A DNA stretch of 64,000 nucleotides from Candidatus Poribacteria bacterium. Lineage in GTDB: Bacteria > Poribacteria > WGA-4E > PCPOR2b. The notes under the pieces were generated by a model. That model was not told where the DNA came from. It saw only the letters and a program-made list of their open reading frames with translations, and did not search any database. This document shows, piece after piece, positions 4,309-54,346 of this stretch. How positions within the stretch are numbered: position 1 is the stretch's first letter; each line of letters opens with the position of its first letter. The stretch is from positions 1,664,001-1,728,000 of the forward strand of contig OZ244587.1 of NCBI GenBank assembly GCA_965218095.1, read 5' to 3'. Position numbers and translations under genes: made by a program.

Positions 4309-5190
4309 CTACACAAAGCATTCCCTGATAAACTTCTTGAAGATGTTCCGGTTCTTCCGGTTGTTGTACTTGTAACACGCCTCAGCGATGTAGAGCGAAA
4401 CATGCTTGTAGTGGTGATGTGTACCATGAAACGCACGTTTCACCAGCGACCAGAACCCTTCAATCGTGTTTGTGTGGGTATTACCGTCCACGTACTGCCA
4501 GTTCTTGTGTCTGATGACATGGTGAGGCATGAGCCCATCAACCGCCTCATACGATGAGAACTCATCTGTCATTAGAACTGAATCCTTCGGCTTCTCAATA
4601 ACGCCTTTGATGAACCCCAAAACGCCCTTACGACTCAAACTCGTAGCCACACGCGCCACAACATTCCCAGCCCGTTCAACAGCACCGATAACGGGCGTTT
4701 TCTTCGTGCCTCTACCTCGCTTGCTCGGTGGAGGCAAGTTCCCGTCCTTGTCTTTTCGTCGTCGGGGCTTACCGCCCACGTAGGTTTCATCGCATTCAAT
4801 AATTCCTCTCAGTAAAACCTTGCCCTTTCTACCCATCTCAGACCTGATTCGTTTCATCATGAACCAAGCTGAGGGTTGCGTTAAGTCCAAATGACGAGCC
4901 ATTTGACAACTTGATAGGCTTTTCTTCGCATCGTTCATTAACAGGATAGCCATAAACCACTTCTGAAGTGGAATCTGTGTTCCTTGAAATATCGTTCCCT
5001 GTAACACATTGAAACTTGACTTACAAGTATGGCAATTCCAACGACCAATTATGCTAGCTTCATTCTTCGGTGCAACCTTTTTACTTTCGCAATATGGACA
5101 CTCAGGTTTGCCACCCCAGCGGATAGTTTCTAAGTGTTTAATACAACTCTCTTGGTCAGAAAATCGTTCTACAGCATCAAACAAGTTCAT
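4309..5190 (-). CDS. IS1595-family transposase
   Basis: Zn ribbon CPYC...CHTC, DETYVGG, TDEFSSY, HTNTIEGFWS. Confidence 0.95.
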   Translation of the reverse strand: MNLFDAVERFSDQESCIKHLETIRWGGKPECPYCESKKVAPKNEASIIGRWNCHTCKSSFNVLQGTIFQGTQIPLQKWFMAILLMNDAKKSLSSCQMARHLDLTQPSAWFMMKRIRSEMGRKGKVLLRGIIECDETYVGGKPRRRKDKDGNLPPPSKRGRGTKKTPVIGAVERAGNVVARVATSLSRKGVLGFIKGVIEKPKDSVLMTDEFSSYEAVDGLMPHHVIRHKNWQYVDGNTHTNTIEGFWSLVKRAFHGTHHHYKHVSLYIAEACYKYNNRKNRNIFKKFIRECFV

Positions 5191-24261: not shown

Positions 24262-25081
24262 GGTTCTGTTGACATTTCAAGGGAGCCATATAAGAGTGGA
24301 GACAAAGCTGAGAAATCCAAAATAACGGATAGCTAACTTCTCGAACCGAGAGAAGATGCGGCGATACCATTTTATCTTGTTAATGAAACATTCAACCCGA
24401 TGTCTCTCTTTGTACAGATGTTTGTCGTAATCTCTTTGATCCACACGATGACTTTTGGGCGGTATCACCGCAATCGCTCCATTCGCCTCAATAACCGCGA
24501 TAAAATTGTCAGAGTCATATCCCTTGTCTCCAATCACATACTCGCTTTTATATCCAAGTATCAACGCTTCTGCTTCTGCTATGTCGTTTCTTTGACCGGG
24601 CGTCAGATGTATTCTTAGTGGATTACCCAGGCCGTCAACGATGATGTGAATTTTTGTACTGAATCCCCCGCGAGAGCGACCTAACGCTTGGTTTTCAGTG
24701 CCACCCTTTTTTTTAAGGCACCCGCCACACACGGGTGCGCTCGAATGATTGTACTGTCCACAATAAGCGACTCGATATCGGGGTCGGCGGCGAAGTGGGG
24801 GTGCATCTGTGTGAAGATACCTTTGTCGCACCATCGAGCAAACCGCTTGTAGCGGGTGTTCCATTTGCCATAGGTGTCTGGTAGAAGTCTCCATTGAGCC
24901 CCGCTACGAGTCACCCACAGGACGGCTTCGACGAAGCGGCGTGTAGCAGCTTCGTCGCCAACATAGATGGTGAGACAGCTAAGAAGAAACCGGTATATCT
25001 TATTCCATTGTTCATCAGGTAAGGTTATTGGCGTCATTCTTCTATTATGCCACAACCTTATACTCAAATGTCAACAGAACC
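24262..25081 (-). mobile_element. IS5-family element (two-ORF, IS427-like)
   Basis: Perfect TIR GGTTCTGTTGACATTT / AAATGTCAACAGAACC, each end in CTAG context (TA duplication). Confidence 0.92.
24277..25037 (-). CDS. IS5-family transposase, programmed -1 frameshift likely
   Basis: orfA (RSGAQWRLLP, DSTIIRAH) overlaps orfB (LGRSRGGFSTKIH, GDKGYDSD, YKERHRVEC) at A8G slippery run 24706-24714. Confidence 0.88.
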
Positions 25082-39707: not shown

Positions 39708-39832
39708 AGCCTCCGTTTTGGGTAAAAAATGATCAAAGATAGGTTTTGGGCGTTTCAACATAGACGCGCAGAAACGCCGATCGATCAATAGATTTTGAGT
39801 CTTTCAGATTTGGGAAAGCGTGGAGGAGAAAA

Positions 39833-40300
39833 TCAGGTGAAAGGAAACGGAGGGGCGCGGGGGGAAATCTGCTGAGTAGGAGAATCTTTGTAGGGTTTGT
39901 AGGCGAATTGAAGATAGGAAGTGAAAGAAACGGAGTCGGAAGAAATCTTAGGAATTGCAGGGATTAGCGCAACAAATGAGAACTTGCCTTTTTGTATTTG
40001 TGAGACGAGCTGAGGTTCGCTGGCTCCGAGCAATTCCCACCGGTTTAAGCAACAATTGTCGTCTCCATCGTTTTGGCTTTCGTGGGGGCGGGCTGGTTGA
40101 TTTTCAGCATGACAGCAAGTTGGATTGTCTGTTTCAGCGGTGGTTTGTGACAAGGTCAGAGACTGCCGATAGATCGAGGCTTTATCGGATTCGGCGTCTC
40201 CACAGTCTGCTTCTCGGAGTGCTGGACATAGCACCGGGCAAAGAAAATAAACTGAAGATATCGAGAGTAAAACCAGCGCGTAAACGTCCTTGAATTTCAT
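39833..40300 (-). CDS. DUF2946/CutF-like leader protein with C-terminal PRAPP
   Basis: Hydrophobic N-terminus, CPVLC, CCH, CC, ends ISPRAPPFPFT; GGAGG RBS. Confidence 0.8.
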   Translation of the reverse strand: MKFKDVYALVLLSISSVYFLCPVLCPALREADCGDAESDKASIYRQSLTLSQTTAETDNPTCCHAENQPARPHESQNDGDDNCCLNRWELLGASEPQLVSQIQKGKFSFVALIPAIPKISSDSVSFTSYLQFAYKPYKDSPTQQISPRAPPFPFT

Positions 40301-40386
40301 CAAATTACCGCCTCCCATGCAATAATACTTCTACGCAATAATAATAATTATACCCGGCTTTGCGTATGGAAGTCAAATTTTTCGCC

Positions 40387-40595: not shown

Positions 40596-40953
40596 CTAAC
40601 CCATAACCGCCTCTTCCTGTTCAACCGCAATCGAGAACCACCTATACAGCGCCGGAATCACTAACAACGTCAAAATGGTTGATGTGACCAAACCACCGAT
40701 CACCACCGTTGCCAAAGGACGTTGTACCTCGCTGCCAGTACCATGGGACAAGACAATGGGGACGAGCCTAAGCCCAGCCGCGGATGCTGTTATCAGCACG
40801 GGACGTAGCCTCAAGCAGGCGCTGCGAATACATGCGTCGGTCATGGGAATTCCCTCCTGTAGGAGCTGGTTGAGGCAGGTCACCAAAACCATGCCATTGG
40901 CGAGAGCAATCCCGAAGAGCGCAATGAAGCCTATCGATGCCGGGACAGACAGG
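40596..40953 (-). pseudogene. C-terminal remnant of CusA/CzcA heavy-metal RND pump
   Basis: SIGFIALFGIA..NGMVLV, RLRPVLITA, GSEVQRPLATVVIGGL. Confidence 0.85.
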
Positions 40954-42095: not shown

Positions 42096-43204
42096 GAGGG
42101 GTGTGCATAGTAGTTCATTGGAAAACAGCCGCCATATGAGAGATATTGCGAGCAGGTAACTTCCATATGGCATTGGCAATCATAGCCACTTGCACTGATA
42201 ACACCCCGATAGCTAAACAACAGCGTACATTGAAAAACCCCTTGACCGGTAACTGCTTCTGTTGAGGAGTGGTGCCTATCACTTTAGCAATCAAGTCAAA
42301 CAACGGTTCAACCGAACTGCGACGTTTGCTTAAACAGAGACGCTGCTTGGGTTGGTTGATAAATCGATGATACGCCTTGGCAAACCGTCCCTTTGTCCAT
42401 CTAAGTGCCGGGGTAATCAAAGCGACTTGTGCCTTCGCCCAACGACGGATACGGTCTGCTTGGGTATAGGCATCATCGGCAGTGAGTGTCTGCGGTGAAA
42501 GTTGTGTCAGAATCTCAGACGCTTTAGCATCTATCGCCCAACTTTCGGAGACCGACGCACGGTGCACAGTTATCAGTGTTGGGAACGCACCTTGTGTGCA
42601 GATAATGTGAAGTCCGTAGCCATAGACCCAGCCATGATAACCACTCTTGCTCCACGTGGCATCGGTGTCGAGGTTGCGTAGATGTTTAGGTGCTTTTCCT
42701 GCTTTGCGGTCAGTTTGATGCCAGACGGGTCCTCGTGCCTTAAATAAACTTTTGTCGGCTACCAGATGAGCCAAGTTGAATTGTTGGGACAAGTCAGTGG
42801 CATACTGACCGATAAACAATACAAATGCCTCTATCACTTCATATAATGCCTTATAGCGACGTGCAATCGTGGTTCGATGAGGGGGCTGTTGCCACCCCAG
42901 CATTTGTAACACTTCTGGGTGATTGATTAGCCACCGCCATTGCGTTTTGAAGCCATAGATGCCGTGAAACTGCATCAACATGAAGAAAATGATAAACGAG
43001 GTGGTTGAATATGTCAATGGTTTTGCGTGTGTGACACCTGGTTTGTCAATACGGTGTTGCATAAACTGCTCAAAGAGTTGCATAATAAGAGTGACATAAT
43101 CAGCCAACATTGGTCTTTGTACCATATTGGGGCTCCTTTTGCTATGATAACAATAGGAAACCCTTTTGGCTTGATTATGTCAACTATATTTATGCACACC
43201 CCTC
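42096..43204 (-). mobile_element. Insertion sequence (DDE_Tnp_1-type)
   Basis: Perfect 14-bp TIR GAGGGGTGTGCATA / TATGCACACCCCTC; 9-bp duplication ACCTAAACT. Confidence 0.9.
42115..43125 (-). CDS. DDE transposase
   Basis: VADKS, DTDATW, GWVYGYGLH, TADDAY, RRSSVEPLF. Confidence 0.88.
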   Translation of the reverse strand: MVQRPMLADYVTLIMQLFEQFMQHRIDKPGVTHAKPLTYSTTSFIIFFMLMQFHGIYGFKTQWRWLINHPEVLQMLGWQQPPHRTTIARRYKALYEVIEAFVLFIGQYATDLSQQFNLAHLVADKSLFKARGPVWHQTDRKAGKAPKHLRNLDTDATWSKSGYHGWVYGYGLHIICTQGAFPTLITVHRASVSESWAIDAKASEILTQLSPQTLTADDAYTQADRIRRWAKAQVALITPALRWTKGRFAKAYHRFINQPKQRLCLSKRRSSVEPLFDLIAKVIGTTPQQKQLPVKGFFNVRCCLAIGVLSVQVAMIANAIWKLPARNISHMAAVFQ

Positions 43205-47735: not shown

Positions 47736-47914
47736 GTTTTTACTATAAATCACTTTACTCGCAGCTACTTCAGGATAACCATAAGAGAGTGACCCCGAAA
47801 CCTTTTGAGTTGAAAAAGGATGAAAACCGCGCCTTGCTAATCTTATTATAAAAAAGTGCTCCCGATCTTTGCAAGAAAAAAGCAAAGGAAAACTAAACGC
47901 CCCTAAATTGCGAC

Positions 47915-47952
47915 AAAAAATTTGTCAAAGTCAATCCGCTTGTGCTATAATA
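47915..47952 (+). promoter_or_regulatory. Promoter of the leader/TBDR operon; 38-bp repeat copy 2
   Basis: TTGTCA-18 bp-TATAAT with TG extension. Confidence 0.65.
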
Positions 47953-47999
47953 TCATCTCTAATTTTCAAGTATCTCACGTTTGAAAGAGGTAAAGGTTC

Positions 48000-48302
48000 T
48001 TGCAGAACAATCGAACCCACATCAATCCAACCGGCTGGGTAATTGCAATTGGGATTTTTTATTCTCTGATGGCAATAAGCCTTGTCGGGCTCACATATGA
48101 ACACGACCACAATATCCTCGGTTCGACTGATTGTTCTGCTTGCTTCTTCAGTGCCAACCACCTCGGTATTGAGCTCCATGCTGTTGACTTCACCAATCTC
48201 GATACCTGCATCTCAATTCACTCCCCTTTCGACCTTACTTTCATCTTCACGACACCTGTCAACAATATCCAAAGTCGTGCCCCACCAGCGTTCTCCATTT
48301 AA
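48000..48302 (+). CDS. DUF2946/CruR-like leader protein with C-terminal RAPP
   Basis: TM segment, HDH...CSAC, ends IQSRAPPAFSI. Confidence 0.8.
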   Translation: MQNNRTHINPTGWVIAIGIFYSLMAISLVGLTYEHDHNILGSTDCSACFFSANHLGIELHAVDFTNLDTCISIHSPFDLTFIFTTPVNNIQSRAPPAFSI

Positions 48303-48442
48303 TCTCCTAATCTAACCCATATCTCTGCTTTTTTGACCCAATCAATTTCTATCTTTTCCCTGGCTGATCTGTATCTGACTTTGGCGGTAGTCTGCCTAAG
48401 TCGTGATGCCGGGAAAAACAATTTATCTATATTTTGGAGGAC

Positions 48443-49018
48443 ATGATGTTTACCTGTTTTTTTAGATTCACTCTGTTACTACTCGCATTTGCTGTGCTGT
48501 TCGCCGCTTGTAGCGAAGATGATAATCCCATTGTTGACCATGACGACGAACCATTTCATGCCGATGCCGACGGTTTTATCCTCAAGGTTGACGGGAACGA
48601 GATCTACCGCCAATTTCAGGGGACGCATACGGGAGGTATCACCCTCAAAGTCGGGGAGGAACTGGATGTTCTCGCCGTGTTCCTTAACCAGCATGAAGAG
48701 GAATTTTTCCCTGAAGCCCCGGAAGAGGGCGAAGATCACGACCACGACGATCATGGTGAGGAAGAGGTGTTTGCCTTAGCTCTCAGCGGATTTGATTCAT
48801 CAACCATTGAAGTACACCTTTACGAAAGTGAGGAGGACGACCATGAAGATGATCACGCTGAAGAAGGCGAAGACCACGACGATGAGCTCGCCGAAAAATT
48901 TACCTTTGAGGTGAAAGGGCTTAAAGCCGGAAAAACAGAGTTCAAACTCCAGCTATTGCACGGCGACCATCCTGATTTCACGGCGGCGTTCTCGACTCCC
49001 GTAACGGTTACACCGTAG
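48443..49018 (+). CDS. His/Asp/Glu-rich lipoprotein (metal-binding candidate)
   Basis: Lipobox FAAC; DHDHDDHGEEE; LLHGDHPDF; GGAGG RBS. Confidence 0.85.
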   Translation: MMFTCFFRFTLLLLAFAVLFAACSEDDNPIVDHDDEPFHADADGFILKVDGNEIYRQFQGTHTGGITLKVGEELDVLAVFLNQHEEEFFPEAPEEGEDHDHDDHGEEEVFALALSGFDSSTIEVHLYESEEDDHEDDHAEEGEDHDDELAEKFTFEVKGLKAGKTEFKLQLLHGDHPDFTAAFSTPVTVTP

Positions 49019-49161
49019 GGAGCATTTGCTTGGGAGATTGTTTTGTCGGATTGCCAAATCCAACAGTTGGTCTAGAGTTGGCAATCCAGACAGAGCAAAG
49101 TGAAAGTGGAACTACCCGAACTGAGTAGATTTTGACACAACTCTAAGATCAGAGGCTTCCG

Positions 49162-51372
49162 ATGAAACGCTTAATCTTTTGTCTATTCACCATTCTCCTG
49201 ACTCATAATGTAGACGGGGTATCCTTGTCCCGCCCCGTTTCCGTTTCAGGGCAGGTGATTGATGCTGAAGCGGAAACTCCCCTTGTGGATGTCCATGTAT
49301 CCCTGTTACGCAAAGCAGAAGGCGCATCTGTGTTCCAAACCGATAGGACTGGACAGTTTCGGTTTGATGGAATTGCGGTGGGAACGTATACACTTCGATT
49401 CAATCACGTTGGCTATGAAACGTTAGATCAAGAAATCGTTGTCAAGGCGGACTCGACAACGATGGCAGTGAAATTGAAACGCAGTCCGCTCCAACTTGGA
49501 GAGATTGTTGTTACACCCGGTGACGAGGAGCACGCTCATTTTGAGAAAACCACCGACCTCAACCTTTCAGCGCAGCAGCTTGATCAGCAAATGGGAGTAA
49601 CCATAGCCGAGACGCTTAGCGGAGAGGTAGGGATCGCCCAGCGGACGATGGGGCGAGCAACCGCGCGTCCGGTCATCCGGGGCATGGGCGGTGATCGGCT
49701 GCTTATCCTCGAAAATGGCGGGCGCACCGGCGATAAATCAGCGTCCTCAGCAGATCACGCGGTTGCAATTGACCCAACCACCGCGACAAATATCGAGATT
49801 ACGCGCGGACCGGCGTCGCTAATTTATGGCTCAAGCACACTCGGCGGTGTCGTCAATGTCAAGCGCGAGACCATCCCGCAAACCCTGCCCCATCGTCCAA
49901 CGATGAATCTCACATTTCAGAGTGAGTCGGTCAATTCAGGGCTGACCGGAACGACAGAGCTGACGATTCCGATTGGTAACCTTGCGTGGAGGCTGGAGTT
50001 GAACCGCCGCCACACCGACGATACACATACCCCCATCGGTATTTTAGAAAACACGTCGCTATCGCAAACTAATTTTGCGACCGGTATCTCAATGGTCAAG
50101 GATTGGGGACACATTGGGATTTCAGGCGGTAATTACCGTTCAGATTACGGGATTCCCGGTTCGCCGGAAGGACACATCCAAGGCGTCACTATCGACCTCG
50201 ACCGCCAACGGTATGAAGGTAATTTTGAGTATGGGTTTCAGCAGTCGTTTCTTGAGAAACTGAAACTGCACTCGACCTACACACGCTATCAGCATCAGGA
50301 GATTGAATCAAACAGCACGCTCGGTGTTGAGTTCGGCCTATTGACATACAACGCGTCCGCATTGGCTTATCTGCACGGCGATGCAGTTGCCGGGGTTTGG
50401 GGCGAGTACCGTGACCATGCGACGGGCGGGTTTTACTGGACGCCGCACACGCGGGAGATGTCCTTGGCGGGTTTCTATTTCAAACAGAAGCGGCTCAACG
50501 CCTCCTTTACGTTACAAGGTGCAATTCGCTACAACATCAGACGGGTTGAGCCATTTGTGGAAGGTGCTGTCATCCGCGCAGGAACGGTGCAACGACGGGA
50601 CTTCGGCGGCATGTCGAGTGCGGTTTCGAGTATCTATCATTGGAACGACAACTTGGGAACTGGTGCTACCTTGATGAAGACGTTTCGCACACCGGGAATC
50701 GAGGAACTCTTTTCAGATGGTCCGCATCTCGCAGCCTACTCCTACGAAATTGGTAATGCCGAACTCGGTTCGGAGGATGGCTTCGGGACAGAGGCATTTC
50801 TGCGCTATGCTGCCGAGCGCGTGAAACTAAATCTCACCGTTTTTCGCAACCAGATTTACAGTTATCTGATTCCGACCAACACAGGCGAAAAGGAGTGGGG
50901 GAGTGGTGCGGCGGGGTGGCTGTGGATATATCAATACCGGGGACAAGAAGCCATCCTTGACGGAGCCGAATTTAGCATTGACACTGAAATCGTCCCACGA
51001 TTTCAGGCACAGGTGCGCATGAGTTACGTCAAAGGGACTTTGACAACCAGTGGATCACCGCTTGAACGCATCCCGCCGCTCAACGGAAAAGTGGCGCTGC
51101 GATACGTAACGCAGCCGCTAAACTTTCACTTCACGGCGCGATTTTCAGACGACCAGCATCGGCTCGGCGAATTTGAAGAGGCGACCGACGGGTACATCGT
51201 CTACGATGTGGGCTTGCAGTTGGCGTTTCCGATGTGGCGACTTCAGCATCAGATGGTTGTCGCGGTCGAGAATATCTTCGACACCGAATACCGTCAGCAC
51301 CTTTCGAGAATCAAATCAGTAATGCCGGAGCCGGGACGGAACGTGAAATTTTTATATCGGCTGAATTTTTAA
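49162..51372 (+). CDS. TonB-dependent receptor, ZnuD-like metal uptake
   Basis: N-terminal extension, RPVIRGMGGDR, SADHAVAID, IEITRGPASLIYG, ENIFD, EPGRN, terminal F. Confidence 0.92.
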   Translation: MKRLIFCLFTILLTHNVDGVSLSRPVSVSGQVIDAEAETPLVDVHVSLLRKAEGASVFQTDRTGQFRFDGIAVGTYTLRFNHVGYETLDQEIVVKADSTTMAVKLKRSPLQLGEIVVTPGDEEHAHFEKTTDLNLSAQQLDQQMGVTIAETLSGEVGIAQRTMGRATARPVIRGMGGDRLLILENGGRTGDKSASSADHAVAIDPTTATNIEITRGPASLIYGSSTLGGVVNVKRETIPQTLPHRPTMNLTFQSESVNSGLTGTTELTIPIGNLAWRLELNRRHTDDTHTPIGILENTSLSQTNFATGISMVKDWGHIGISGGNYRSDYGIPGSPEGHIQGVTIDLDRQRYEGNFEYGFQQSFLEKLKLHSTYTRYQHQEIESNSTLGVEFGLLTYNASALAYLHGDAVAGVWGEYRDHATGGFYWTPHTREMSLAGFYFKQKRLNASFTLQGAIRYNIRRVEPFVEGAVIRAGTVQRRDFGGMSSAVSSIYHWNDNLGTGATLMKTFRTPGIEELFSDGPHLAAYSYEIGNAELGSEDGFGTEAFLRYAAERVKLNLTVFRNQIYSYLIPTNTGEKEWGSGAAGWLWIYQYRGQEAILDGAEFSIDTEIVPRFQAQVRMSYVKGTLTTSGSPLERIPPLNGKVALRYVTQPLNFHFTARFSDDQHRLGEFEEATDGYIVYDVGLQLAFPMWRLQHQMVVAVENIFDTEYRQHLSRIKSVMPEPGRNVKFLYRLNF

Positions 51373-51404
51373 AGGTTGGCAATGAAAGTCGGGAGAACGT
51401 CAGA

Positions 51405-51878
51405 TCAGTCAACACGGAATTTCTGCTCCACACCGTTGACAACAACTTTATAATCACCCGCCGGGAAAGTCCCAATAAAAACCTGCTCTTGATACTCCGT
51501 TACGACCGTCGCGCAAACACTATCTTTCGGACGTTTGGTTGTCATCTGGATGGTGATAGTGTTTCCTTCCCGCGCTTGATGTGTCTCATGGTGTACGGTA
51601 CAACTATCCGGTAGATACCCAATGACCTCAACGGTAACTTGAACGGGTTTACTCTCCGTGATTAGTAGTTCAATCTCTTTGATGGACAGATCTGCAATAA
51701 TCCACTGATCACCAACAACATCACTGTCTCTGTTCGATGGTTCACCGGTATCTGGTGGTTCACTGGTATCATTGAGCATATCATCAATGACGTTCGAGCA
51801 ACCGATGCAATATATCATGCTGATGATTGTGACAAACTGCATGATACGATGAAGCAGTTGGAAAGGAGTTGTTTTCAT
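51405..51878 (-). CDS. Hypothetical lipoprotein
   Basis: Lipobox CIGC; ESKPVQV, GYLPDSC, GDYKVVVNG. Confidence 0.7.
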   Translation of the reverse strand: MKTTPFQLLHRIMQFVTIISMIYCIGCSNVIDDMLNDTSEPPDTGEPSNRDSDVVGDQWIIADLSIKEIELLITESKPVQVTVEVIGYLPDSCTVHHETHQAREGNTITIQMTTKRPKDSVCATVVTEYQEQVFIGTFPAGDYKVVVNGVEQKFRVD

Positions 51879-52273
51879 GATGAATCCTTTCGATATGTGA
51901 GCGGTGCATTTGGGTTTACACTTAGAATACATCATTAGAAGCGGAATGTCAATAGATTAAAGTGAAAACACCGGCGCATTGTGCAAAGCATCGGTTTCAG
52001 AAACGGCGACATTGCATTATTGCCCACCTTTCCAAAAGTTCATCAAACTTGTTGATTAAAGAAATCTGCTAGATTACAATTGGCCAAAACGAGTTGATTC
52101 AAACAGAGCAAAGGTTAAAAATCAAATTGGAATTATATAATTCCGAAACCGCGGATGATTCCCAGGTCCGCCGGGGATTAGTATCAAGTATAAAGTGGGT
52201 TGTATTACGTTGAACTACGAATCAACCCAAAATGCTTATCCCTGAGTCAATCGGGGCAAATGAGAATCAATCG

Positions 52274-52735: not shown

Positions 52736-53812
52736 TTACCACAATGTGAAAGCATATTGCCAACCGGCAACGAACCCCTAGTCAAGCTCCATTTGAGGAC
52801 CGTCTAGGTGCTGATAGACCGGAACCCAGAGCTCGAGTGCGAAACGTTGTCCTGCTAAAAAACCACCGAGCCGGTCAGGGAAGATTAAGTTGGTACCCGC
52901 GAGAAGGCTTCCACATGTGCCGCCGCGAAGATGCGGAGCCATTGTGGGGGCCATTTCCGGCTTGAGGGCTTCATCGCTTCCGGCTATATTTCCCCAATTT
53001 TCAAAAAGTGCGCGAACTGAAACGCTAACCCAGTCGTTCAAGCGGCGCGCACCCCATATCGTCGACGCAGTGGCTGGGCCGAGACGGTAGCCTCGGCTGT
53101 TTTCATTCAATGGGACCGCTGCGCGCGTTTGGCCTCCAAAAGACCAATTGCCTAGCGTTGCGGTAAACGTTACGCTTGGCATCAGCTCAAAAGAGCCGGA
53201 GCCTAATTGCATGGGGTACGGTAGGAGACCGTTTTTACCCGCCTCCTCAATGGAGCCTGTGGGAATAGAGAACCCGGCATTGAAGATGAAGGCCGCATCT
53301 TGTGTCCGGAGAAGGGGAATCAGGGCGGAAAGTTTTAAATCACTTAGCCCGGCACTTTCCATCTCATGAGGTCCGACCGGATGGTCGTGGTCTCCATGAG
53401 CATGCGTGTGTGTTGCATCTCCTTCCATTTTCATGAAATTGTTCCGATAGCTCGTCATGGTCATGAGGGTGATGCGGTTATGTGGTGCGAACATCACCCC
53501 GAACATGTGCATCTGCATGCTCATGTGAGTGGGAGTTATCGCAAATTCTTCTAGGACCTCATCTGATGAGATTGGCTCGGTACCGACTCTGAGTCCATCC
53601 ATTCCCATCCCCATAAAACGGTATGACAACATCCATTCACCCTTTTCATGGGTATGGTCGCCCATAACCCCTAGGGGTGCATGACTGTCAGGACGAGTTG
53701 ATTCTTGTTCGGATCCAGCGGTTTCTCCATTTGCCAGAACCGTTGAAACGTCTGTGTTCGTCAACACGAATAACACCGATAGTATGATTGAACATTGTGT
53801 GAGTATCTTCAT
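52736..53812 (-). pseudogene. His-rich outer-membrane transporter/porin-like protein with premature TAG at 52778
   Basis: RPDSHAPLGVMGDHTH, HTHAHGDHDH, LPYPMQLGSG; frame continues past TAG as GFVAGWQYAFTLW. Confidence 0.75.
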
Positions 53813-54346
53813 TGGACTGCTCCTTTTTGTGGGTTTATGCAATTTCCTAACTTACCTTTCGCATTATTTCGGAACAGTTTTTCTAATTTTTAGATCCAGT
53901 CGTAGCAAGGGTTCCCAACAGCCTGATTCGATGGATTGCCACATCACTGCAAAGGTCGTGTTTCTCAAGTGAAACGGCCGATTATTAGATCTGTGCTACG
54001 TGCGGGTTCGTACTCCGAAATTAAAAAAACTTCCTCGGGATTACGCGAAAGGTAGGTTTAAAGATGGAACCGACCTCGAATTGACAACCAATGGCAGCAA
54101 CTTTCTGTTTGCTGGCGGTCCATGGCAGACATGTATTGATAAACAAGATTATATCTAGTTTTCATCTGCATTCGCAACAGCTATCATTGATTTAGTCAAA
54201 GCCTTGGGTTTGTCATTGGGCAGCCCTGCAGGTATGTATTGTCCCGGTGATAATACCCGCTTTGACAAAGCTTTCCCCTAGTGCTGTGCACCCCAAACCC
54301 AAATTAACTAAAAACCCTTTCCCTTCCTTTCAAACTTGATACTCTC

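Follow-up and report, generated by a model that had tools for sequence, protein, structure and literature searches.

A RAPP-terminated leader with histidine and CxxC motifs, a candidate metal-sensing arrest peptide, precedes lipoprotein and ZnuD-like receptor genes in a Candidatus Poribacteria bacterium

We examined a small open reading frame (ORF) in a 64,000-nucleotide (nt) stretch of DNA from a Candidatus Poribacteria bacterium (GenBank assembly GCA_965218095.1, contig OZ244587.1, positions 1,664,001 to 1,728,000, forward strand); we call the whole stretch the window and number it from its first letter. The ORF (48000-48302, + strand) has a TTG start, encodes 100 amino acids (aa), and stands ahead of genes for a lipoprotein-like protein and a TonB-dependent receptor. 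We consider it here as a candidate regulatory leader of these genes. A first-pass annotation made from the sequence alone had described a transmembrane (TM) helix, a His cluster, a CSAC motif and a terminal SRAPPAFSI in this ORF, and all of them are present where it placed them. The hydrophobic segment W13-T32 (48036-48095, + strand), read by eye from the translation, is a putative N-in/C-out signal anchor: a stretch of 20 residues preceded by R5 and followed by acidic residues, which is kept in alignments of relatives. Next comes a putative metal-ligand segment, Y33-E-H35-D-H37...D44-C45-S-A-C48 (48096-48143, + strand). The RAPP codons, CGT GCC CCA CCA (R93-A-P-P96; 48276-48287, + strand, with Pro95 at 48282-84 and Pro96 at 48285-87), are followed by only four more, so that the protein ends S92-R93-A-P-P96-A-F-S-I-stop. 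The spacing from CxxC to RAPP is 44 residues. CruR, a leader from Bordetella pertussis, is reported to arrest in vitro with two Pro codons in the P and A sites (PMC12992588); by analogy with the CruR toeprint, Pro95 would be expected in the P site and Pro96 in the A site.

Upstream of the leader lies a sigma-70-type promoter, TTGTCA-18 nt-TGcTATAAT (47922-47951, + strand), which matches the consensus at 11 of 12 positions and has an extended -10 TG. The -35/-10 block is also kept 5' of leaders in close relatives, and by eye no conserved palindrome was seen around the promoter in these relatives. The TTG start is shared by 20 of 23 close relatives. A conserved CUCUUGAAAGAGG precedes the leader start (47960-48000) and could form a small stem over the leader's own Shine-Dalgarno (SD) sequence. 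Between 47650 and 49200 we found no terminator-like site and likewise no intrinsic terminator.

Downstream, 143 nt separate the leader stop from the ATG of the gene for a His/Asp/Glu-rich lipoprotein-like protein of 190 aa with the motifs HADADGF and LLHGDHPDF (48446-49018, + strand). We consider ATG 48446 a likelier start than the listed TTG 48434 because relatives begin MFTCFF. Four of its histidines (H38, H124, H172 and H175) are invariant across 26 sequences, and no Pfam or NCBIfam family matched the protein. An AlphaFold2 model (predicted local distance difference test score 77.6) has beta-sandwich domains; Foldseek with this model returned generic Ig-like matches only (template modelling score about 0.36), and a search of the ESM Atlas returned unnamed clusters only. 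After another 143 nt follows the gene for a 736-aa TonB-dependent receptor with an N-terminal CarboxypepD_reg domain (49162-51372, + strand). Its best NCBIfam match is ZnuD (NF038289) at 194.9 bits, far below the cut-off of 950, with the copper-receptor model at 64 bits; its best match in the PDB is again ZnuD (4rdr, E 3e-31), with OprC at 5e-8. The earlier description of the receptor as ZnuD-like holds in that, by sequence, ZnuD is its closest characterised relative, though the score falls below the ZnuD family cut-off.

As a codon pattern, RAPP is not unusual in itself: it matches 2 sites in the window against 2.19 expected. Among the 12 permutations of R, A, P and P, RAPP is the rarest in the long ORFs of the genome (3 occurrences; range 3-17), and RGPP occurs once. 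A genome-wide scan for small ORFs with terminal RAPP or RGPP, which the first-pass annotation had suggested, returned 15 ORFs of at least 40 aa with R[AG]PP within the last 12 residues. Only 2 of these also have a TM segment and Cys motifs, and both lie inside the window. The case that the leader motif goes beyond chance comes from its conservation: SRAPP is retained in 25 of 26 close protein clusters, and the exception, P0017, reads like a frameshift.

These 26 homologous clusters were returned by a word-indexed search, at full-length identities of 47-80%, and include one protein that NCBI names as Candidatus Poribacteria. In an alignment of 27 close sequences, C45, A47, C48 and P95 are invariant; across 25 diverse sequences C45 and C48 remain invariant and H35 nearly so, and in relatives the stretch from the His cluster to CxxC has a variable (H-E/D)n insert. 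When 1.84 billion representatives were searched exhaustively with a profile, only 23 proteins reached E <= 0.001. Of the 22 remote relatives that were fetched, 19 have RAPP, 1 has RSPP and 2 are apparently truncated. A homologue search seeded with one of them, P0048, returned 3 proteins only, and tblastn of P0048 against plasmids gave no matches. In a profile search of genomes of the phylum, relatives of the leader were present in 119 of 151: 24/25 in family f1, 9/10 in f2, 84/100 in f3, 1/4 in f4 and 0/11 in the remaining five families. Many of these genomes have two leader copies about 6 kb apart. Among eight close leader coding sequences, substitutions number 141, 132 and 206 at codon positions 1, 2 and 3, and the RAPP codons vary synonymously.

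For comparison of whole loci, we gathered 30 close loci and 20 distant ones, the latter hand-picked from the match list; a motif pattern found the leader in 18 of the 20. Left out were L046 and L050, in which the pattern found no leader, and L026, L038 and the second L042 copy, for which the rule applied gave no downstream start. The distance from CxxC to RAPP is nearly fixed, at 44 residues in 22 of 23 close loci (45 in the other) and, among 19 distant leaders, at 44 in 12, 45 in 4 and 43 in 1; spacings of 48 and 58 in distant leaders came from the pattern catching an upstream CxxC. The tail after RAPP in distant loci is 3-11 residues, and the spacer from leader to next gene in relatives is 128-576 nt.

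Several observations concern further copies and insertions. This genome has a second leader copy outside the window (C1:3652695-3652988, - strand) with an in-frame TGA within the ORF and the intergenic hairpin described below retained; an insertion follows, and then, about 4 kb on, a paralogous 740-aa receptor gene without a lipoprotein gene. This copy looks like a decayed paralogous locus. Inserts of 100-170 nt with a GGACTTACGCA-like core lie between leader stop and hairpin in L005, L006, L007, L011, L018 and L025, and another lies in this genome on C1 near 3652600; they resemble a small mobile repeat for which the leader spacer is a tolerated or targeted site. In a sister genus (L004, L006-L009, L011, L013, L025), a second leader copy precedes a different gene, starting MFTCFF(R/K)(C/H)(T/S)(L/S)LL. 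This start resembles that of the lipoprotein, so the duplication seems to extend into the lipoprotein gene by a dozen codons. The SD downstream of these second copies is AGAGGAA and pairs weakly with the leader tail.

The last four leader codons, A-F-S-I, contain an anti-SD sequence, GUUCUCCA (= GTTCTCCA; 48290-48297, + strand), complementary to the lipoprotein SD, UGGAGGAC (= TGGAGGAC; 48435-48442, + strand, core GGAGG at 48436-48440), with 8 pairs including one G-U. This pairing had been noticed in the first-pass annotation, and we recovered it by folding the RNA 48264-48462: the helix is present in both the minimum free energy structure (-38.9 kcal/mol) and the centroid. In total energy the fold is unremarkable (z = -1.29, matched by 21 of 200 shuffled sequences). 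The long imperfect intergenic hairpin (48354-48417, + strand) that had been proposed to bring the two strands together also appears in both predicted structures, but it is conserved only in the close group and with almost no covariation. Its base is kept in 22 close relatives, with both-sided change in only 1 of 5 base pairs; RNAalifold on these 22 sequences returned only the hairpin base and short local pairs (-1.19 kcal/mol), and by eye no hairpin of this type was seen in distant relatives. As mobile-element-like insertions in six close relatives show, the distance of the hairpin from the leader stop is free.

Measured from the first base of the P-site codon, the anti-SD spans +8 to +15 nt and its core +9 to +14. 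A stalled ribosome covers roughly 15 nt downstream, so the core would fall inside the expected footprint. Thus the downstream SD is predicted to sit in a helix whose other strand would be covered by a ribosome stalled at RAPP.

We found comparative evidence for this arrangement. We compared the duplex formed between the next gene's SD window and the 24 nt from the second Pro codon with those formed by all other windows of leader and spacer. At the window locus the tail is the best SD partner among 130 windows. It ranks best in 20 of 46 loci overall, in 7/29 close and 13/17 distant ones. In distant loci, tail and SD are separated by spacers of 198-576 nt and yet form duplexes of 10-14 bp (-12 to -20 kcal/mol). 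The pairing also keeps its register: counted from the R codon, tail base t pairs with SD base g such that t + g = 20. At this fixed register, for t = 12 to 24, 73.7% of cells pair, compared with 23-56% in slid registers; L045 was dropped from this count, and L020 was kept, with its SD window mis-set on an upstream TTG. Pair types change on both sides, and more than one Watson-Crick pair occurs at several positions; examples are one with U-G in 20 loci, U-A in 15 and C-G in 7, another with G-U in 22, G-C in 7 and A-U in 5, and a third with A-U in 19 and U-A in 11. The residues after Pro96 would not yet have been synthesised at arrest, so the conserved UUC UCC codons can have no role in the arrest itself. 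Motifs, spacing and complementarity, with its register and covariation, can all be read directly from the sequences. The fixed register, the complementarity in divergent relatives and the both-sided changes speak for the earlier proposal that a ribosome stalled on the RAPP leader would free the downstream SD.

A second possible output is suggested by base composition. The 3' part of the leader and the first 58 nt after its stop form a C-rich, G-poor tract (48160-48360, + strand) that may be a Rho loading region. Its best 78-nt window has 30 C and 5 G, which places it in the top 0.036% of 325,664 genome windows, and relatives average 26 C and 9.2 G. With such a tract and with Rho encoded in the genome, Rho attenuation of the CruR type may act too. 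Rho control and SD masking can coexist.

Genes near the relatives bear on which metal might be sensed. At 18 loci of family f3, chosen from large contigs and including 11 from genomes among the 20 distant loci, MerC-like genes lie 3' of the receptor in 13, ZnuA-family genes in 11 and CobW/COG0523 genes in 11, with 66 of 97 selected ORFs scanned. At L032, ZnuA and an ABC-3 permease stand directly behind the leader. Two sister-genus loci have a split MacB-type ATP-binding cassette (ABC) system: one leader precedes genes for the lipoprotein, a MerC-like protein, an ABC ATPase, a MacB/FtsX permease and two DUF3299 proteins, and the second leader precedes a receptor-sized ORF. A MacB-type ABC operon, PA4063-PA4066, is described as Zur-regulated in Pseudomonas (PMC11481552). 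Because the receptor is ZnuD-like, and because related operons hold ZnuA-family, COG0523 and MacB-type genes, zinc is pointed to over copper. The nearly invariant His cluster that the family has in addition to the CXXC of CruR, with (H-E/D)n inserts in relatives, points the same way. We give zinc about an even chance of being the metal; copper is a rather unlikely candidate, and other metals account for the rest. The synteny of ZnuA, COG0523 and MacB-type ABC genes fits a metal other than copper whose uptake is ON under scarcity. By analogy with known systems, the uptake genes would probably be switched on when the metal, most likely zinc, is scarce.

On balance, the sequence features and the analogy with CruR make it reasonably probable that the leader at 48000-48302 is a metal-sensing RAPP arrest peptide of the CruR/DUF2946 kind, with zinc as the likeliest metal. 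We propose the following mechanism. The promoter at 47922-47951 would transcribe leader, lipoprotein and receptor genes together, and the N-terminal helix of the leader would bring the nascent chain to the membrane. The ribosome would stall at R93-A-P-P96, with Pro95 in the P site and Pro96 in the A site, and would cover the next 15 nt or so, including the anti-SD (48290-97). The lipoprotein SD (48435-42) would be left free during arrest, and so the uptake genes would be translated; the stalled ribosome, occupying the C-rich, G-poor tract, may also keep Rho off. Plentiful metal would bind the His cluster and C45xxC48; at 45-60 residues from the peptidyl-transferase centre, these would just have emerged from the exit tunnel. 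The chain would then compact and pull, releasing the arrest; the ribosome would read four more codons and leave, and the anti-SD would close on the SD and shut uptake off.

Several observations count against this interpretation or some part of it. Arrest, its release by metal, the identity of the metal and the sign of the response are argued from analogy. For the RNA part, the excess of pairing at the fixed register is small: partner shuffles average 70.8%, none of 500 reaching 73.7%, and the loci are kin. The tail pairs weakly with the SD (-3.9 to -4.5 kcal/mol, ranks 63-103) at the 8 loci of paralog type B, which have the AGAGGAA SD, and pairing is also poor in L022, L023, L027, L028 and L045. 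When the ribosome footprint was masked in a partition-function model, mean SD accessibility rose only from 0.12 to 0.23, and at the window locus from 0.00 to 0.14; 8 of 45 loci, all of them distant, gained 0.2 or more, compared with 0 of 45 under a control mask. A back-up partner for the SD, in place of the anti-SD, is available in CUCC at 48304-07. The stretches 47983-48328 and 48368-48672 are matched, at 0-4 differences per piece, by RNA-library contigs that come from four runs within a single study; these contigs may contain DNA and cannot show transcript ends, and are compatible with transcription of the leader region without proving it. Stretches of 47900-51400 lacking such contigs are uninformative.

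The choice of metal and the family assignment face objections of their own. In CruR, CXXC is described as a copper ligand (PMC9426467). COG0523 proteins are not specific to zinc. The ZnuA-family proteins score alike for zinc and manganese (AztC 214 bits, manganese proteins 189), fall below every cut-off and have no His-rich loop, and no ZnuA-family match was found in this genome (93.9% completeness). The DUF2946 model, PF11162, does not match the window leader at E 0.1 or E 10; its genome-wide best match, at 10.5 bits, is elsewhere. Among close members it gives weak matches in only 4 of 27 (best E 0.013), and among remote relatives 13 of 22 match, one of them (P0048, 27.5 bits) above the gathering score of 23.7. 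The window leader has the sequence hallmarks reported for CruR, namely CXXC, terminal RAPP, a comparable spacing (44 residues), an export signal, first position in the gene order and a long intergenic region (143 nt). As all of these hallmarks are present and PF11162 gives no match, we read the leader as a divergent branch of the CruR/DUF2946 family, its membership by sequence being borderline.

Many of the same features would be expected of a plain CruR orthologue, in which CXXC would sense copper, the output would be Rho-dependent termination in the intergenic region, and the SD helix would be secondary or incidental. CXXC, RAPP, their spacing and the downstream TonB receptor all match CruR as described, and the C>G tract at 48160-48360, conserved in relatives, recalls the rut site of CruR (PMC9426467); Rho is present, no intrinsic terminator was found, and 8 kb away there is a copper detoxification arm headed by another RAPP leader. 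The known operons, as published, carry CrtA-type receptors with PepSY_TM, PCuAC or Sco, none of which is seen here, and relatives instead carry ZnuA-family, COG0523 and MacB-type genes; the receptor matches ZnuD (E 3e-31) far better than it does the copper receptor OprC (5e-8). The nearly invariant added His cluster is not among the CruR hallmarks listed in the published account, and an anti-SD of 10-14 bp kept across 200-576 nt is hard to call incidental; Rho control and masking of the SD do not exclude each other. We therefore hold a plain CruR orthologue to be unlikely.

Two further explanations dispense with a metal-released arrest. The operon could be under ordinary transcriptional control by a Zur/Fur-type or other factor, the small ORF being a stable membrane metallochaperone or accessory protein with a non-regulatory RAPP end. 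The genome does encode one Fur-family protein, a metal-binding protein could be expected to have His and Cys ligands as well, conservation (47-80% identity) extends over the whole ORF and is not confined to its C-terminus, and the modelled unmasking of the SD at the window locus is small. Such a protein would leave unexplained why RAPP, which proteomes are reported to avoid (PMC12992588), is nearly invariant at a fixed distance from CxxC, and why it is followed by codons complementary to the next gene's SD; relatives show no conserved promoter palindrome, by eye only, and the modest codon-position bias (141/132/206) fits a weakly constrained leader. We consider ordinary transcriptional control improbable. 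The leader might alternatively monitor membrane insertion or secretion, as do SecM, MifM, VemP, ApdA and ApdP, with Sec/YidC pulling on the signal anchor, not metal, releasing the arrest. An N-terminal TM segment with a C-terminal RAPP is the architecture reported for Sec/YidC monitors (PMC12992588), and stalling of the leader CutF is reported to need its signal sequence (bioRxiv 10.1101/2025.02.05.636593). No Sec/YidC component is encoded downstream, however, where the genes are for a lipoprotein and a TonB receptor or, in relatives, for metal transporters, and the invariant CxxC and His at a fixed distance from RAPP point to a ligand; a secretion monitor is accordingly very improbable. A metal-released arrest peptide with an SD-masking output remains the reading we prefer.

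The window holds one other RAPP leader, which bears on how metal genes may be controlled here. This first leader (39833-40318, - strand), of 161 aa and ending SPRAPPFPFT, heads genes for a DUF3347-like His-rich protein, an outer-membrane efflux protein and a multicopper oxidase. It had been called unrelated to the leader at 48000-48302, and comparison agrees: BLASTP between the two gives E 0.26, and hhalign aligns only 13 residues around RAPP at 4% probability. Only 3 homologous clusters were found for it, in which the CC pairs and SPRAPPF are invariant. The RNA logic had been described as shared, and this too is borne out by complementarity, since the two Pro codons plus one base of the first leader read CCUCCGU (39847-39853), the exact complement of ACGGAGG (39710-39716), the SD of the DUF3347-like His-rich protein, whose start is probably ATG 39701. 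A further UCUCCUCC lies just after the stop of the first leader. The first-pass annotation saw no gene for a metal-responsive transcription factor in the window, and among the 35 larger window ORFs scanned with Pfam we found no metal-responsive regulator either; the one Fur-family gene of the genome lies outside the window.

Other genes nearby complete the picture of the window. On the opposite strand beside the receptor gene, a 354-aa protein (52778-53842, - strand) has the His-rich motifs HAPLGVMGDHTHEKGEW and HTHAHGDHDH, and adjoining it is a 176-aa lipoprotein-like protein (51405-51935, - strand). Neither matched a Pfam or NCBIfam family, and the two could be additional envelope proteins with a role connected to metals. 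A 98-aa ORF (40596-40892, - strand), next to the first leader on its upstream side, looks by eye like a C-terminal piece of a resistance-nodulation-division (RND) type pump. The 64 kb also contain three transposase genes, 4309-5190, 24277-24894 and 42115-43125 (all - strand), one IS1595-type and two DDE_Tnp_1; the gene at 42115-43125 is of the DDE kind.

To our knowledge, copper is the only metal for which a nascent peptide has been shown to act as a post-transcriptional sensor, in CruR and CutF, and we know of no zinc riboswitch or zinc-responsive leader. Our search of the literature on RAPP upstream ORFs and TonB receptors, and on DUF2946 with zinc, found no description of a zinc-sensing leader. 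If the link is real, the principle would reach a second metal through a His-rich branch that is widespread and associated with zinc-type uptake genes; should the metal prove to be copper, the leader would simply be a distant CruR. With so clean a long-range anti-SD, the mRNA side of the mechanism can be tested directly, and the fixed 44-residue ruler between ligand site and stall site gives a way to study how a bound ligand comes to exert force on the ribosome. We also put forward, as a tentative idea that we hold short of an even chance, that this His plus CxxC branch of CruR is the first zinc-sensing nascent peptide and runs a phylum-wide zinc-starvation regulon in place of or beside Zur, its proposed members being the receptor, the ZnuA-family protein, COG0523 and the MacB-type ABC; metal homeostasis here, with the copper-arm leader 8 kb away, would then run largely through arrest peptides and not DNA-binding regulators.

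The closest published system is CruR (Bp2923, DUF2946/PF11162), which heads cruR-bfrG(crtA)-bp2921 in Bordetella pertussis (Roy et al. 2022, PMC9426467). The available account gives as hallmarks of more than 2000 proteins a CXXC and a RAPP placed 3 residues from the C-terminus, with 45 residues between them, plus or minus 1-2; an export signal in more than 95%; a long intergenic region downstream; and first position before TonB receptors, PepSY_TM and copper genes (PMC9426467). In CruR, copper is reported to relieve the arrest, upon which Rho terminates, and the rut site was mapped to a C>G bubble (PMC9426467). A 2025 survey reports small proteins with C-terminal RAPP or RGPP to be enriched in many phyla before TonB receptor, YcnI, PCuAC and PepSY genes, and describes RAPP as a strong stalling motif that proteomes avoid (PMC12992588). 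Like CruR, the window leader is a small first gene with an export signal, CXXC and RAPP 3-4 residues from the end at a spacing of 44-45, followed by a long intergenic region and a TonB-dependent receptor, with a C-rich, G-poor tract near the stall site; the expected logic is also that of CruR, with arrest meaning ON and metal releasing the arrest. It differs from the published CruR in the added His cluster (a variable His-rich insert in relatives), in the ZnuD-like receptor, and in the ZnuA, COG0523 and MacB-type genes of relatives that replace PepSY_TM, PCuAC or Sco. Here a conserved anti-SD directly follows RAPP, whereas the output published for CruR is Rho termination (PMC9426467), and the metal is probably other than copper.

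In CutF, the leader of cutFOG in Rhodobacter capsulatus, a copper-induced stall is reported to melt a stem-loop that hides the ribosome binding site (RBS) of cutO (Ozturk et al. 2025, bioRxiv 10.1101/2025.02.05.636593). The window leader would share with it a secreted nascent chain of DUF2946 type as metal sensor and a C-terminal stall that opens mRNA structure hiding the RBS of the next gene. As described, CutF differs in its PPP stall, which is EF-P-dependent, its CXXXC and its multicopper oxidase target, compared with RAPPAFSI and CxxC here, and in sign, because in CutF metal induces stalling, the opposite of what we propose; the window's other leader (39833-40318) resembles CutF more closely than the leader at 48000-48302 does. 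With ApdA, ApdP and SecM (RAPP/RAGP; PMC10951233, PMC10987492) the leader shares an N-terminal localisation signal, a RAPP that would sit at the peptidyl-transferase centre and an SD that would be freed by the stalled ribosome. Unlike the Sec/YidC monitors, it precedes metal uptake genes, and its release would likely come from ligand binding, not from translocon pulling. The part of the 2025 survey available to us reports upstream ORFs before TonB receptors and copper genes and mentions no zinc link (PMC12992588), and a Caulobacter Zur study, as far as its account goes, lists two DUF2946 genes, one of them before czrCBA, without a mechanism (PMC4176598). Proteobacterial Zur regulons (ZnuD, ZnuABC, COG0523, PA4063-66) group the same kinds of genes under metal-starvation control, unlike our proposal through a DNA-binding repressor in the place of a nascent peptide. 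The principle of a metal-sensing nascent leader is thus already published for CruR and CutF; what is new here is a His-rich, probably zinc-linked branch with a built-in, covarying anti-SD that is widespread in one phylum.

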